The notes under the pieces are model-generated. The model had not been told where the DNA came from and ran no database searches. It saw only the letters and a program-made list of their open reading frames with translations. 11,056 bases of DNA from Candidatus Thorarchaeota archaeon (lineage in GTDB: Archaea > Asgardarchaeota > Thorarchaeia > Thorarchaeales > Thorarchaeaceae). Where the stretch lies: assembly GCA_016839605.1 (NCBI GenBank), contig JAEOTX010000174.1:1-11056 (forward strand). The letters run 5' to 3'. Below are positions 3,189-8,957 of the stretch, in pieces (the first letter of the stretch is position 1; each line of letters begins with the position of its first letter). Position numbers and translations under genes: made by a program.

Positions 3189-4856
3189 ATGGTTCGGACC
3201 CTGTATCTAAACTTCTTGTTTAAGAAAGAAGGCACGAGAGTTGTGGCAGAGCCGGAAAGCGTCTGTCTAGCTGCGGCACTTGCATCTGCAGAATCTCAGA
3301 AGGGGAAGAAAGCTAGGATAATTGGTCTAAGTAGTGTTTCATTCCCATTCTGGATTGTGCAGACCTCGCCTACGAAATCGATTGCTTTAAACGCATCTAG
3401 TAGTGGGACTACGGAGTTTCACTTCAGCGGGATGAAGGGAGCAAGTGAAGTGAGGAGGATATTAGGTGCTGAATTATCTCAAGCAACAGACATCCCTGGA
3501 GTTTCATCAAAGATACAGCCACTTCTTGAGAATGTTGACCACCATACAACTAGCATTGCTGGTATAGCTGAGCCATCATTCATCAAAGCAATAGGGGATT
3601 TCGTTCTTGTTTCTGACCTTTCAGCTGAACCCAACAGAGTCGAAATCCGGTCTGAATCGGGCGCTGCTCTCAAGAGATCTGAAGAGTTCAAGAAAATCTC
3701 TGAATCCGCAAAGCTACGTATTGAATCAGCAGAAACGTTACAGAATCTACTCAGGGAGAATTACGGAGCTCAAACCACAATTCTAGAGAACATCACGAAA
3801 TTGGAACATGAGAGGGGAGACGGCCGCGTCAGTACGATGGAGGAAAGAACAAAGCAAGAGATTGCTAGTCTCAGGGAGAAAAAAGAGAACGAGATCTATG
3901 AGTTGCGTGAGAAGCACAAGATGAATCTGCGAGCTATGACAGCAGACTTCTCTAGAGCGATAAATGACCTTGAACAGTTCTTTGCTGAAATTGTTGGTGA
4001 GATAAGAAAAGCACAATCCCTAATCAGCCAGAAAGAAGCAGATACTGAAGGTGCGATTTCAGTCTACAGCAATCTTGTGAGCTCGCTGAAGTCGACCCTG
4101 GCAAATAGCCAACAGCCCTTGGATATGATGGATGCGAAGAAAGCGGATCTGGAGAGACGTGTTGCTGAGGCTCAAACAAGATTCGAATCGGACAAGATGA
4201 ACGCAGAGACCTCGTTGCAAACTGAGATCCAAGAACGTCAAAGAAGAATCGAAGAGTCGAGGGGTGAAAAGGAGATCAAGACCAAAGAACTTGATGACCT
4301 CAAGGCTCAGGTGAAGGCTGCAATAAGCAAGTCTGAACAGTCAATCGCGAAGAGAGTCTTGGATTTTCAACAGGAGTTTCTTAAGCTGATGAACTGGACA
4401 GTGGATAACAATTCAGTCAGAGAGCTTGCACCATTGACGCTTCTCGATGTACATACATATGTGGTCAAGTATGACGATCAGTCTCTTAACGTCCTCACTC
4501 CCTGTTTCTTGCCTGAAGAGAACATATTGACCATGGGAGAAGGAAATACATTGAGCAAGGAGTTTGATGATGCTTTTACAACCTACATAGACGAATTGCT
4601 CCAGAAAGACACATCCTTCAAAGGATCCTTCGAGCGCGCCTGTACGAAGGGCAACATGCTGTTAGCGGCTGAAGCTGAGGAATCACTAGTGCAGGGGCTA
4701 GAGGAGCTCCTAAGAAAAAGACTTCTTCAGACTGATGACATAGAGCGATTACTCACTGTTTGGAGTAAATACTCAGGAAAATGTCCCAAGTGCGGGGCTG
4801 GTGTTGATGCAGGTGCCCAGTTCTGTCAGAAGTGCGGATTGGAATTAACAACTTAA
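3189..4856 (+). CDS. Long coiled-coil protein with globular N- and C-terminal regions and a C-terminal zinc ribbon
   Basis: 555 aa. Residues ~157-402 form an E/K/R/Q-rich helical region that is almost proline-free. The C-terminus carries CPKCG-x8-FCQKCG. GTGGTG lies upstream of the ATG. Confidence 0.85.
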   Translation: MVRTLYLNFLFKKEGTRVVAEPESVCLAAALASAESQKGKKARIIGLSSVSFPFWIVQTSPTKSIALNASSSGTTEFHFSGMKGASEVRRILGAELSQATDIPGVSSKIQPLLENVDHHTTSIAGIAEPSFIKAIGDFVLVSDLSAEPNRVEIRSESGAALKRSEEFKKISESAKLRIESAETLQNLLRENYGAQTTILENITKLEHERGDGRVSTMEERTKQEIASLREKKENEIYELREKHKMNLRAMTADFSRAINDLEQFFAEIVGEIRKAQSLISQKEADTEGAISVYSNLVSSLKSTLANSQQPLDMMDAKKADLERRVAEAQTRFESDKMNAETSLQTEIQERQRRIEESRGEKEIKTKELDDLKAQVKAAISKSEQSIAKRVLDFQQEFLKLMNWTVDNNSVRELAPLTLLDVHTYVVKYDDQSLNVLTPCFLPEENILTMGEGNTLSKEFDDAFTTYIDELLQKDTSFKGSFERACTKGNMLLAAEAEESLVQGLEELLRKRLLQTDDIERLLTVWSKYSGKCPKCGAGVDAGAQFCQKCGLELTT

Positions 4857-5196: not shown

Positions 5197-5616
5197 TTAA
5201 CCGTCGCCCAACCAATCAGGCACTTCATGATCCAGCCAAACGGGATCTGGCGTGATCTCATCCTCTACGTCTCTACCGCGGCTGTCATGGATTATTTCGT
5301 TGAATTCCTCTGAAACAGATACGGTCATGTCTTTATCTACAACCATCTGACAAGACAGGAACACCTGAGGTGCATCGAATTGGGGCAAACCCGCTTCTAT
5401 CTTCCTATCAAAGAGCTCCTTCTGGGCTTGAGTCACCTTTCTTGGTATTCCTTTCCTTGCAGTGACTCTACAGGTGGTGCATCTCGCCTTCCCTCCGCAA
5501 GAATGGACTATGTCAATCTCATGCTCTATAAGAGCCTTGAGAAGCTTCGTCCCATTCTCAACGGTGAATTCCTTCACGACTTCTCCCATGAAGTCGACTA
5601 CCGTTACTGTTGGCAT
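5197..5616 (-). CDS. [2Fe-2S] ferredoxin (adrenodoxin/ISC-type spacing) with acidic C-terminal tail
   Basis: C40-x5-C46-x2-C49-x39-C89 (HSCGGKARCTTCRV...LSCQ), with a beta-grasp-type N-terminus. Confidence 0.9.
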   Translation of the reverse strand: MPTVTVVDFMGEVVKEFTVENGTKLLKALIEHEIDIVHSCGGKARCTTCRVTARKGIPRKVTQAQKELFDRKIEAGLPQFDAPQVFLSCQMVVDKDMTVSVSEEFNEIIHDSRGRDVEDEITPDPVWLDHEVPDWLGDG

Positions 5617-5763
5617 GTTTGACGAATGGCAAATTCCTGCTAAAATGCATTATGAAGAAACTGCTCTCATGAAATGAATCCAAAGAAAGTGAGAACTATG
5701 TCAATGAGTGTGATTGGGGTGGTGGAGCGATAAGATATTGGGAGTTGGGGGGTTGAAACCTGC

Positions 5764-7050
5764 CTACTCGTAAGGAGTAGCTTTCCCTTCAGCGACCTCC
5801 CGACTAAACCACTCCTTATAAGGTTCAAACTCAGGGGGCTTGAACTCGATCTCGTCCAGGTTCTCAGGTATGGGATACTTTCCATAAAGCCTGACTGCCT
5901 CAATATAGGAATGAACGTTTATCGGAGGAGTGTCCGCAGGGATTTGAATGGCATTGAACATGAGGCGACCCTCTCTCGCAAGCCCATCCATCACCCTCTT
6001 TACAAAGTTAGCTATCTCATACGGGGACGAGTCCCTAATATAGCTGGCACTGCAGGTTGCAGCAACTGGTGGCCAAGAGCCCTTCGCCTTGTTCACCTCA
6101 ACGAACTCCTGCATCACCTCCATCGGCCAAAGTTCTGGCTTTCCCATCCCCATCATTAGGAAAGGCATCCCCATCATCTCTTTTCCCATTCGGGACCAGC
6201 ACCACTTCATGAGGTCAGGATCGAATTTCTCAGGGTTGTCTTCGCAATAATCTCCAGATATCGCAACCATGGCTGACAGCCCCTTCTTCTTGGCCTGCTC
6301 CACCAAGTATTTGTTCCACGGGAATACAAACTCTTCAAGAATCTCTTTGCTAATGTTTGGAATAACCGCCCATGCATCAGCACCTATAGAATTCTTGGCG
6401 CCGGTTTCTTCTTTCAGCAACTGAAGGTAAGGTATCAGCACATCATCTATAGACCACTGAAGAAGTCTATGAATGAACTCGGGATTCTTTCTAGTGTTCA
6501 GAATGACTCTAGGATATGAGTGGACTCCACAGATAAAACTGAAGGGAGCACAGAAGACTCCACTGCAAGTCCCTGAATTCTGCTTATTTCTAAGAATACT
6601 ATCAATAACAAACCCTACTCTGCCCGAATCTCTCTCTATTGGCACCTTGACTTTGTCCATATCCTCTGGCTTCTTGACTAGTGGATCGCTCTGATCTATT
6701 GTGTTCATATGGTCTTTACTCCTGACCAGCTTTCCACCAAGCGCCTCAATTTCATAGTTATAGGCCTCTGGAGCCATTCCCATTGGGGTCTCAAATCCGT
6801 ACCACTTTTGGACACTAGTCTGTACATCAGTACAATACGCCCCATCCGTTTGATGAAATCTTTCAGGGTCTGCTCCGGCCACAGTCATTGTATGAACATG
6901 GATTTGAGCAGTCCCCAATGGCACGTAGTCGGGTTTCCCCATTATAGCCGCTACAGACCTGCTTCCAGAATTTAGATTGATGAATCGCAGTCCCTTTGCA
7001 TATAGCAGCCCTTTAATCGCATCTCCAGTTGATGGTCTGACAAAACTCAA
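5764..7050 (-). CDS. Uroporphyrinogen decarboxylase (UroD/MetE-like) family cobamide-dependent methyltransferase
   Basis: Motifs include PDYVP, YNYEIEALGG, DPLVKKPED, FCAPFS, KNPEFIHRLL, ADAW..P.IS..LEEFVFP and IPADTPPINV..YIEAV..YG. The TTG at 7050 overlaps the corrinoid gene stop (TTGA) and follows GGGGGTG, so the ORF-track start at 7110 is probably an over-extension. Confidence 0.85.
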   Translation of the reverse strand: MSFVRPSTGDAIKGLLYAKGLRFINLNSGSRSVAAIMGKPDYVPLGTAQIHVHTMTVAGADPERFHQTDGAYCTDVQTSVQKWYGFETPMGMAPEAYNYEIEALGGKLVRSKDHMNTIDQSDPLVKKPEDMDKVKVPIERDSGRVGFVIDSILRNKQNSGTCSGVFCAPFSFICGVHSYPRVILNTRKNPEFIHRLLQWSIDDVLIPYLQLLKEETGAKNSIGADAWAVIPNISKEILEEFVFPWNKYLVEQAKKKGLSAMVAISGDYCEDNPEKFDPDLMKWCWSRMGKEMMGMPFLMMGMGKPELWPMEVMQEFVEVNKAKGSWPPVAATCSASYIRDSSPYEIANFVKRVMDGLAREGRLMFNAIQIPADTPPINVHSYIEAVRLYGKYPIPENLDEIEFKPPEFEPYKEWFSREVAEGKATPYE

Positions 7051-7688
7051 CTCTGCACCCCCATCAACTTCAGGGCTTTCTCTGCAGTTTCTACTCCATC
7101 TCTCCCCCATGCATCCGCTCCCAGTTTCTTTACATATTCATCACTTGTCCTCACGCCCCCCATCATCACTTTCACATCATCTTTTAGCCCATTATCTACC
7201 AATGCCTGAACATAGTCCTTCATCGTTGACGCAGTGGTACTCATGTAGGCGCCTATCCCCACGATATCGGGTCTGAACTCCTTTGTCTTCTCAATGAACG
7301 TGGTGATTGGTACGTTTACGCCGAGGTCAATGACCTCGAAACCAGCCCCCTTTAGCATTGTCACAACAATCGATTTACCAAGATCATGCATGTCTCCCTC
7401 TACAGTGCAGATCAGGTACTTTCCGATCTTCTCTCGATTCTGGATATCCTGGTCTTTCTCCAGGATGTTCATTGCTGACTTGAAGGCTTCTCCGCACATA
7501 ACTACATCTGAAATGAAGTAGGCATTCTGTTTCCATAATTCTCCGGCTTGGTTGATGCCAGGAACGACGGCATTGTTGATCGCGTTCAGAACGTCAGCTC
7601 CCGAGTCCATTAGTCCCTTTGCTAACTCTTCGGCTAAGTCTGGCTCTCCTTCAACAATAGCATTCTTTAATTCCTCTAGATTCTCCAA
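7047..7688 (-). CDS. Corrinoid (B12-binding) protein of a methyltransferase system (MtaC/MttC-like: helical cap plus B12-binding Rossmann domain)
   Basis: The cap domain (LKNAIVEG...PGINQAGELW...FISDVV) is followed by TVEGDMHDLGK, GFEVIDLG.NVP and VKVMMGG. The likely start is TTG 7688, 9 nt after GGGTG, with ATG 7712 as the alternative. Confidence 0.93.
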   Translation of the reverse strand: MENLEELKNAIVEGEPDLAEELAKGLMDSGADVLNAINNAVVPGINQAGELWKQNAYFISDVVMCGEAFKSAMNILEKDQDIQNREKIGKYLICTVEGDMHDLGKSIVVTMLKGAGFEVIDLGVNVPITTFIEKTKEFRPDIVGIGAYMSTTASTMKDYVQALVDNGLKDDVKVMMGGVRTSDEYVKKLGADAWGRDGVETAEKALKLMGVQS

Positions 7689-7749
7689 AGCACGCAACAC
7701 CCTGAATATCATGAGCTGAACAATGTAAAATTCCTTTTCCTTTCTAGCG

Positions 7750-7793: not shown

Positions 7794-8090
7794 TCAATCA
7801 GCTTGCTGAAGGTTTACCTTCTCTATCATCTGAAGCATTGCGTCCACCTCTTTCTGAGATAGAATTGCTCTGATAGCATCAAGTTCGTTCTGGTTTCTTA
7901 TGAGTGCCCCTACCTTATACATTGGATTCCCGCTTTGTCCAATCGGATTTATCTCAACGGCCAAATAGGCTGGTTCATCCTTTGATCGAGGTATCTTTCT
8001 GATGAATAGTCCAGGTTCATCCATCCTTAACCGTTCGAATTTCCTCCCGTGCTTGAGCATATCTCTCAGCGATTCTTCCATTACACTCAC
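7794..8090 (-). CDS. Conserved archaeal hypothetical protein, possible PC4-like ssDNA-binding fold
   Basis: 98 aa with GTG start. The pattern PGLFIRKIP...AYLAVEINP...GNP.YKVG..IR...EL reads as beta-strands followed by a C-terminal helix. Confidence 0.7.
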   Translation of the reverse strand: MSVMEESLRDMLKHGRKFERLRMDEPGLFIRKIPRSKDEPAYLAVEINPIGQSGNPMYKVGALIRNQNELDAIRAILSQKEVDAMLQMIEKVNLQQAD

Positions 8091-8207: not shown

Positions 8208-8591
8208 TCACTTAGCACTGACTATCTTGTCCACATCTCTGCATTTTGTCAGGACCTGCAATTTAGTCAAGGAATCAGGGATGATCACTGTCTTGGACTT
8301 TCTTATCTCGTCCACATACTGGTCGAACAATTCCCAATCAACATCTTTGCTTATTGTAAGGGTCTTAATACCGCTGAACCCAATGGGTCCCCCTACCGAT
8401 TCCAGTTCCTTCTTGTTTATGGTCAATTCATCCAGGTTCTCAACCCTGAACACCTTCTCACTTGTTTCCTCGAGAAAGATACGCATGACCTGAGTCACAA
8501 GCTCTCCAATTGGAACGCTTCTCCTTCTGGCCTCTGCTGAGAACAGGCTATAGACATTATCGTCAATGCCCCGTATCGTCACATCGGTCAC
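8208..8591 (-). CDS. Ribbon-helix-helix (FitA/Arc-like) DNA-binding protein with a C-terminal repeat-like domain
   Basis: The N-terminal DVTIRGIDDNVY..F.AEA.RR..PIGELV..VMR.FL is a textbook RHH pattern. The GTG start follows GAGGGTGA. Confidence 0.8.
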   Translation of the reverse strand: MTDVTIRGIDDNVYSLFSAEARRRSVPIGELVTQVMRIFLEETSEKVFRVENLDELTINKKELESVGGPIGFSGIKTLTISKDVDWELFDQYVDEIRKSKTVIIPDSLTKLQVLTKCRDVDKIVSAK

Positions 8592-8617: not shown

Positions 8618-8935
8618 TCAGAGCTCCCGTAGGACTATGCCTGGGGAATTCCTGAGGAAGCAAGCTATGGCCATGAAGAAGGTACCAAAGAGGATCACTC
8701 CAGAGGCGATCAATATCTCCAGGGTCAACGGCACGATGCCAAGAAATGCTAGCATCATTAATGCTCCAACGAATGTGATCAGGAACCCGATGTAGCCGAC
8801 AAAGACCCATGCTGCGCTGGCTTCCTCTCTCTTCCGCTGTTGCTCATCTATCTCTTGGAATCTCTTCCGCATTCGATCTCGTACTTCACTATCATCGTTG
8901 TTAGGTGTTTCATCAGATGTAATATTTATCACCAT
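8618..8935 (-). CDS. Small membrane protein: charged N-terminal helix plus two TM helices
   Basis: Charged segment RDRMRKRFQEIDEQQRKREE, then hydrophobic WVFVGYIGFLITFVGALMMLAFLGIV and ILIASGVILFGTFFMAIACFL. The start is uncertain (8953, 8944 or 8935). 8935 fits both GGTGA and the TATA box at 8958-8964. Confidence 0.7.
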   Translation of the reverse strand: MVINITSDETPNNDDSEVRDRMRKRFQEIDEQQRKREEASAAWVFVGYIGFLITFVGALMMLAFLGIVPLTLEILIASGVILFGTFFMAIACFLRNSPGIVLREL

Positions 8936-8957
8936 TATCACCATACACAACATTTGG

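Follow-up and report, generated by a model that had tools for sequence, protein, structure and literature searches.

A corrinoid protein and a UroD-fold methyltransferase without the canonical zinc motif form a coupled, putative demethylation cassette in an Asgard archaeon

Methylated compounds can be demethylated by corrinoid-dependent systems of four components, and two such systems are the closest described counterparts of the locus discussed here. In MtoABCD of Methermicoccus shengliensis and Archaeoglobus fulgidus, a corrinoid protein and a substrate-side methyltransferase (MT1) of the UroD superfamily are combined with an MtrH-like second methyltransferase (MT2), MtoA, and, as activator, the RACo-like MtoD, which has a [2Fe-2S] domain at its N-terminus (PMC8630106). 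The UroD superfamily covers O-, S- and halogen-demethylating MT1s, and while the veratrole and vanillate O-demethylases contain zinc, MtvB and CdmB are without it; CdmB, from the chloromethane system CdmBCA of Acetobacterium dehalogenans, has no metal and a hydrophobic cavity in its structure (9RUI) (PMC13222342). The MT2 of that system is the pterin-binding CdmA, not MtrH. Here we analyze a stretch of 11,056 nucleotides (nt), contig JAEOTX010000174.1 of assembly GCA_016839605.1 (C110 in our numbering; "the window" below means this whole stretch), from a Thorarchaeota-type Asgard metagenome-assembled genome (MAG) of 3.08 Mb, in 259 contigs and 80% complete. It carries, in a row, genes for a corrinoid protein, a UroD-fold enzyme and a ferredoxin. 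With a probability of roughly 0.68, the first two form a coupled cassette that works as part of a four-component system of the Mto/Cdm/O-demethylase type, and the ferredoxin is unrelated to it. The features in question are:

7712-7047, minus strand: corrinoid (cobamide-binding) carrier protein, 221 amino acids, with B12-binding_2 and B12-binding domains
7047-7062, minus strand: translational-coupling junction, with a GGGGGTG box at 7056-7062, TTG at 7050-7048 and TGA at 7049-7047
7050-5764, minus strand: UroD-fold corrinoid-dependent methyltransferase, putative MT1, 428 amino acids from the TTG
5617-5763, minus strand: spacer of 147 nt between the UroD-fold gene and the ferredoxin gene
5616-5197, minus strand: stand-alone [2Fe-2S] ferredoxin, 139 amino acids, Pfam Fer2 at 39 bits

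The coordinates, gene order and quoted strings of a first-pass annotation, made from the sequence by a model, were all reproduced when the window was read again, including the TTGA overlap at 7047-7050, in which the TTG start of the UroD-fold gene lies over the TGA stop of the corrinoid gene. A Shine-Dalgarno-like GGGGGTG box can be read 5 nt upstream of the TTG, and the arrangement GGGGGTG-N5-ATGA recurs in homologous loci. In 17 junctions compared, ATG stands at the corresponding start in 14, the exceptions being TTG in the window and in locus L057 and GTG in L020 (GVG-type), and the N-terminus MSF is common to 13. Because of this agreement in position and N-terminus, TTG 7050 is taken as the right start. 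The same comparison led us to reject a longer reading frame of the UroD-fold gene from ATG 7110.

The partners of the cassette were compared across 84 homologous loci. Of these, 77 have enough upstream sequence, and in 65 of them the UroD-fold gene is immediately preceded by a corrinoid gene; coupling to a corrinoid protein is thus the rule, and a haem-biosynthesis context without a corrinoid partner is not what was found. MtrH is the next downstream gene in 20 of 74 loci. When all neighbours were clustered, 34 of the 84 loci proved to have RACo, 21 MtrH, 15 a methyltransferase of the Pterin_bind (pterin-binding) type and 9 DUF1638. When only the 52 genome loci of at least 9 kb are considered, MT2 is present in 24, RACo in 23 and both in 16. 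The order among orthologues varies: five close ones (L021, L022, L057, L058 and L060; 74-87% identity) read corrinoid protein, UroD-fold enzyme, RACo, with a RACo of 535 amino acids that has a Fer2 domain of its own, and four others (L020, L061, L063 and L117; 57-65% identity) read corrinoid protein, UroD-fold enzyme, MtrH. A further order is RACo, corrinoid protein, UroD-fold enzyme, MtrH, MtrH. The locus of a distant relative has an MFS transporter in addition, and several loci show tandem duplications of corrinoid and methyltransferase genes resembling MtoB1/B2. Within one genus alone, the cassette occurs in at least four different contexts. The window itself holds no MT2 or activator gene by Pfam and NCBIfam profile scans of its proteins, as the first-pass annotation had said. 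Elsewhere in the genome, contig C219 encodes a RACo whose gene is truncated at the 5' side by the edge of the contig, and there are three MtrH homologues on other contigs.

Since its recurrent partners, MT2 and RACo, give the cassette the same four components as the Mto, Cdm and O-demethylase systems, the best reading of the UroD-fold enzyme, by analogy with these systems, is that of an MT1, and the earlier suggestion of a substrate-side methyltransferase fits the operons of the family. In such a system, a methyl donor would bind in the barrel mouth of the enzyme and be presented to the Co(I) corrinoid of the carrier, giving CH3-Co(III). A separate MT2, of the MtrH type or, in bacteria, pterin-binding, would then pass the methyl group to tetrahydromethanopterin (H4MPT) or tetrahydrofolate (H4folate) for the Wood-Ljungdahl pathway, and accidentally oxidised Co(II) would be re-reduced by the ATP-dependent RACo. 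In this genome, the MT2 candidates and RACo would have to be supplied from the other contigs. The removal of a methyl group from a donor compound probably feeds carbon fixation; our leading guess for the donor, made by analogy alone, would be a methyl ether, for instance a methoxylated aromatic.

The fold of the enzyme was examined with profiles and a predicted structure. The Pfam URO-D match (47 bits) is confined to residues 56-257 and to positions 36-236 of the 346 in the profile, and the NCBIfam models for MtaA and CmuA (TIGR01463 and NF041608) gave 24.5 bits for a cut-off of 235.4 and 24.3 bits for a cut-off of 600, both failing. A phmmer search with the single protein against PDB sequences found no match, whereas a profile of the family reached UroD and MtaA, and a feature search of the ESM Atlas returned generic URO-D clusters only. 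An AlphaFold2 model, built on an alignment of 55 sequences, had a predicted local distance difference test score (pLDDT) of 94.8, and its best matches among solved structures in Foldseek were UroD and MtaA (template modelling scores, TM, of 0.59-0.76 at 14-16% identity). The match to MtaA of Methanosarcina mazei (4AY7; TM 0.62/0.76, E 3.6e-12) confirms a UroD-fold (beta/alpha)8 barrel, and the fold assigned in the first pass was therefore correct.

Methylcobamide:coenzyme M (CoM) methyltransferases of the MtaA/MtbA type have an H-x-C...C zinc site, and true UroD has the motif P-x-W-x-M-R-Q-A-G-R. Neither is present here. An hhalign alignment to a canonical MtaA-like paralogue from the same genome (HICGN ... 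STGCD) places the ligands H, C and C opposite A263, S265 and I368, positions that are free of ligand-type residues throughout the family. The stretches concerned read AISGDYCED (residues 263-271) and FNAIQIPADTP (365-375), and the N-terminal region in which PxWxMRQAGR would be expected reads PDYVPLGTAQIHVHTM (residues 40-55). Alignment, family conservation and direct reading agree with the first-pass annotation on the absence of both motifs. It had also called the enzyme atypical. The canonical zinc site is indeed absent, but the label is overstated: because MtvB and CdmB are zinc-free, a missing H-x-C...C site is not unusual for an MT1.

What the family has instead is a set of residues of its own. 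In the window's enzyme the family motifs are Q49-x-H51-x-H53, Y97-N-x-E100-x-E102-A, D225-A-W227 and G266-D-Y-C269-E270, and an alignment of 102 full-length relatives shows that the strings QIHVH, ADAW and DYCE, picked out in the first pass as candidate ligands, are the family's conserved residues. Among these relatives, DAW is found in 100, YNxExEA in 86, G[DE]YCE in 79 and H.CG in only one. Near-invariant are Q49, H53, Y84, D/E95, Y97, N98, E100, E102, D119, R144, D225, A226, W227, P231, T374, P375 and H380. An insertion of about 40 amino acids follows strand 5, starting at the conserved G-D-Y-C-E-E motif, and the C-terminal extension of the enzyme, also seen in the first pass, is conserved. 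Catalysis or substrate binding probably rests on the polar set H53, E100, E102, D225, W227, D267, C269 and E270, which is strongly conserved and may bind a metal. The clade is thus distinguished by its own polar signature, the insertion and the C-terminal tail, and no characterised member of it was identified.

The partner encoded upstream is a corrinoid carrier by its domains (Pfam B12-binding_2 at 66.6 bits, B12-binding at 85.2 bits), with the DxHxxG motif in the form DMHDLG (D107-M-H109-D-L-G112); against TIGR02370 it scored 169.6 bits, under the cut-off of that model. A complex of the two proteins, modelled without the cofactor, had a score of 0.70 against 0.00 for the best control. In our benchmark, 58 of 80 solved complexes came up to this mark, as did 2 of 110 mismatched pairs. 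Separate runs agreed in at least 93% of contacts, with a partner pLDDT of at least 86. In the model, the B12-binding face of the carrier, with its DxHxxG loop, sits on the barrel mouth beside the conserved residues, near H53, D119, P231/N232, R339/D340, Q369 and D373. The prediction supports the view that the corrinoid protein and the UroD-fold enzyme bind each other.

An exhaustive search of 1.84 billion cluster representatives returned 242 clusters at E<=1e-3 and 26 at E<=1e-30. The close homologues (57-89% identity, 425-430 amino acids) are all from Asgard archaea, and relatives at 33-42% identity come from Asgard archaea, Chloroflexota and other anaerobes. A scan of one genome per species gave 295 relatives, mostly from Asgard archaea and Chloroflexota; the best 78 of these 295 loci comprise 28 from Asgard archaea and 34 from Chloroflexota, and the rest belong to Actinomycetota, Thermodesulfobacteriota and Bacillota, with a single locus from Methanoliparia. 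By a quick search, a tree was built of 111 proteins, which were the fetched relatives and the genome's own canonical paralogues only. The window's protein falls into a 7-member Asgard clade, nested in a 31-member clade with the GDYCE motif, itself nested in a 77-member clade in which the YNxExEA and DAW motifs are common (support of 100 in the Shimodaira-Hasegawa-like approximate likelihood ratio test, SH-aLRT). This large clade stands apart from the one that holds the H-x-C-G MtaA-like proteins and four of the five other paralogues of the genome. One locus of the same genome (L051, C18:26656-28335) encodes a second corrinoid protein followed by a canonical zinc-type MtaA-like gene (HICGN ... 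APGCD), so that the genome holds both zinc-type and zinc-motif-free UroD-fold methyltransferases.

Compared with the described systems, the cassette is closest to Mto in its surroundings, since its homologues lie directly beside MtrH and RACo genes and one of them beside an MFS transporter gene. In contrast, the enzyme belongs to a different MT1 clade, lacking the MtoB-type motifs and having YNxExEA, DAW and GDYCE of its own, and the window holds only the corrinoid protein and the MT1. The published MtoA homologue of a Sigynarchaeales MAG, NVM17555.1 (PMC13222342, supplementary table), has the accession number next to that of NVM17554.1, which falls into the same 90%-identity cluster as P0022, a homologue that shares 58% identity with the window's UroD-fold protein. 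Like CdmB, the enzyme is a UroD-superfamily MT1 candidate without zinc that is encoded beside a corrinoid protein. Asgard archaea have homologues of both, and in the predicted complex the Rossmann domain of the carrier docks on the barrel mouth in a similar way. By its motifs, however, it is in a separate clade, and where CdmB has a hydrophobic cavity it has a polar and acidic set, a comparison with 9RUI made by the published description only. The motif PLDF[IL]xD of CdmB, MtoB and MtvB was absent from all 303 of the 303 proteins fetched, and short motifs of MecC, MecE and CdmB were found in none of these 303. MtaA is among the best profile matches (E 5e-9) as well as the best structural ones, shares the ExEAxG and GRxP motifs and an aspartate at strand 4, and works with a corrinoid protein, but it is only 15% identical, has the three zinc ligands, and differs in the insertion after strand 5 and the C-terminal extension found here. 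MecC, which the mec dichloromethane cassette encodes together with a corrinoid protein, the MtrH-type MecF and the RACo MecH, resembles the enzyme by eye in having no HxC, AW..VPN in place of the DPxAS of MtaA and a similar C-terminal tail; it differs, again by eye, in being without the YN of YNxExEA, the strand-1 Q/H residues and GDYCE, and in keeping a cysteine near strand 8. The O-demethylase MtgB of Bathyarchaeia (about 300 amino acids; PMC10989822) and the Mlp clusters (PMC10418091) were considered and set aside as different families.

The third gene of the row encodes a ferredoxin with the ligand pattern C40-X5-C46-X2-C49-X39-C89, and the first-pass annotation had counted it as a member of the module and a possible electron donor for the reduction of Co(II) to Co(I). 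Under that proposal the three genes would be one module, with the ferredoxin as a dedicated donor that replaces RamA/RACo. The gene is co-oriented with the cassette and starts 147 nt downstream of it, no strong terminator is visible in the spacer and no activator in the window, and the protein has a weak match to the N-terminal [2Fe-2S] domain in the AcsV/RACo model (29.6 bits for a cut-off of 800). Yet the neighbourhoods of homologues, a comparison suggested in the first pass itself, show no linkage: a stand-alone Fer2 gene was found in none of the 84 homologous cassette loci, and small open reading frames (ORFs) near homologues with a cysteine pattern like that of [2Fe-2S] ferredoxins had no Pfam match. 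The relatives of the ferredoxin make up more than 100 clusters at 60-93% identity, of about 139 amino acids and almost all from Thorarchaeota. In the three related genomes that have both (G005, G011 and G015), orthologues at 84-88% identity lie on other contigs than the cassette, and in four (G014, G016, G021 and G023) the ferredoxin is present and the cassette absent. Five further contexts (L042, L045 and three others) have other neighbours, and the three others show no corrinoid genes. The neighbour that does recur is the convergent gene at 3189-4856 (plus strand) of the window, seen also in G005, G014, L134 and a JGI contig; its product is a 555-amino-acid coiled-coil protein with a C-terminal zinc ribbon (DUF7577-like).

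The ferredoxin gene also appears to have its own promoter. About 50 nt upstream of its ATG are conserved in five genomes with differing upstream genes, including an invariant GCATTTTAG at 5640-5648, which resembles a TATA box and precedes the ATG by about 28 nt. The similarity of the upstream regions ends beyond about -60, and the rest of the spacer is unique to this genome. From these alignments we infer that the conserved box is the ferredoxin's own archaeal promoter and that the spacer is a rearrangement junction. Moreover, the genome encodes RACo, the family's usual partner; the ferredoxin had no blastp match at E 1e-3 to any of four RACo proteins, and it was next to RACo in none of the ferredoxin contexts examined. 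A separate idea, that the ferredoxin is the split-off N-terminal domain of RACo, was rejected, as the two proteins are not similar and the C219 RACo is incomplete simply because the contig stops there. The first-pass annotation had named lack of linkage in homologues and separate transcription as findings that would speak against its proposal; the former is what the homologues show and the promoter-like box points to the latter, which makes a dedicated role for the ferredoxin barely credible. Probably it is an unrelated, separately promoted housekeeping gene, brought beside the cassette by a genome-specific rearrangement. The result is a caution that adjacency in a single MAG is not equal to linkage.

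For the cassette proper, two other readings deserve attention. Methyl flow could be the reverse of that proposed above, with MtrH loading the carrier from CH3-H4MPT or CH3-H4folate and the UroD-fold enzyme, as an MtaA-like MT2, methylating a thiol or other nucleophile. In the Mtr complex of methanogenesis, MtrH works from methyl-pterin toward the corrinoid, a direction that agrees with this reading, and the conserved Cys/Asp/Glu/His set could activate a nucleophile. The N-terminal half of the enzyme is also nearer the MtaA/UroD pattern (ExEAxG, GRxP, APFS) than to the CdmB, MtoB and MtvB sequences in the supplement of PMC13222342. However, the zinc ligands that activate the thiol in MtaA-type enzymes are absent throughout the family, Mcr or CoM metabolism was not seen in these organisms as far as this analysis went, and the operon layout (corrinoid protein, methyltransferase, MtrH, RACo, sometimes an MFS transporter), together with the tandem methyltransferase duplications, matches catabolic MT1 systems (PMC8630106). 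We therefore regard reverse flow as unlikely. Less likely still is a haloalkane MT1, dehalogenating chloromethane or dichloromethane like CdmB or MecC. CdmB is zinc-free, CdmB homologues and mecE-like genes have been reported in Asgard archaea (PMC13222342), and MecC shares with the enzyme the lack of HxC, AW..VPN and a C-terminal tail of the YG.FPI type, as judged by eye only. Against this, the Asgard CdmB homologue NVM19014.1 and NVM17554.1 are different proteins of one MAG, the CdmB-type PLDF[IL]xD motif is missing from every fetched relative, and the cavity of CdmB is hydrophobic and aromatic with a poorly conserved lining, whereas the present family conserves charged and polar residues at the barrel mouth.

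Several observations weigh against the preferred reading, an MT1 cassette in a four-component system with an unrelated ferredoxin. Of the 52 loci of at least 9 kb, 21, the window included, have neither MT2 nor RACo nearby. The MtrH homologues of the genome, which is 80% complete, are only 30-39% identical to the operon-linked ones and none is orthologous to them, while the RACo on C219 shares only about 66% identity with the one linked to orthologues whose enzymes are 86-87% identical, and it adjoins a different corrinoid protein. The direction of methyl transfer is not readable from sequence, and the complex was modelled without its cofactor. Finally, no strong oligo-T terminator follows the methyltransferase gene, and read-through into the ferredoxin gene is possible.

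Some other features of these loci and of the genome may be recorded here. In three Chloroflexota loci (L069:2776-4077, L075:4021-5322 and L090:5948-7237), B12-binding_2 and B12-binding domains are joined to a regulator of the Crp type (cNMP_binding plus HTH_Crp_2); many loci of this phylum have such a fusion upstream of RACo, corrinoid protein and UroD-fold enzyme, where it may act as a transcription factor that senses cobalamin and controls the operon. The DUF1638 gene counted above occurs near the cassette in L097 (5934-6611) and eight other bacterial loci. Four to five genomes of the genus have a gene for an ICMT/PEMT-like membrane methyltransferase beside the cassette, either divergent upstream or downstream (L041:4716-5357, L043:5708-6343, L046:3231-4100 and L056:6596-7231), and in G005 it is followed by two sulfite-oxidase-type Mo enzymes and an AMP-binding ligase. 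Another cluster of the window's own genome (L052, C76:177-7460) encodes a TrmB-MEDS (DcmR-type sensor) regulator, two adjacent UroD-family proteins, a GH94-like protein of 915 amino acids and a corrinoid protein. One of the two UroD-family genes has the canonical HxC...C and a MecE-like N-terminus and the other HxC only, and the cluster may be the cdm/mecE-like Asgard cluster of PMC13222342. The window has four further ORFs on the minus strand (779-1564, 7794-8090, 8208-8591 and 8618-8953) that have no Pfam match and are found at 72-90% identity in related Thorarchaeota genomes.

The range of methylated compounds open to an anaerobe depends on its MT1 enzymes, and the clade described here is widespread in uncultured lineages of sediment and subsurface, among them Asgard archaea, Anaerolineae, Dehalococcoidia, Actinomycetota and Methanoliparia. 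A more far-reaching, and tentative, possibility is that the YNxExEA/DAW/GDYCE clade consists of MT1s for a type of donor not yet linked to UroD-fold enzymes, perhaps with a new metal or acid-base site of Asp, Cys, Glu and His, which would give Asgard archaea and subsurface Chloroflexota an unrecognised entry for methyl groups into the Wood-Ljungdahl pathway. The clade also bears on whether UroD-fold methyltransferases work with a non-canonical metal site or with none, and characterisation of a single member would extend by one substrate the metabolism predicted for Asgard archaea.

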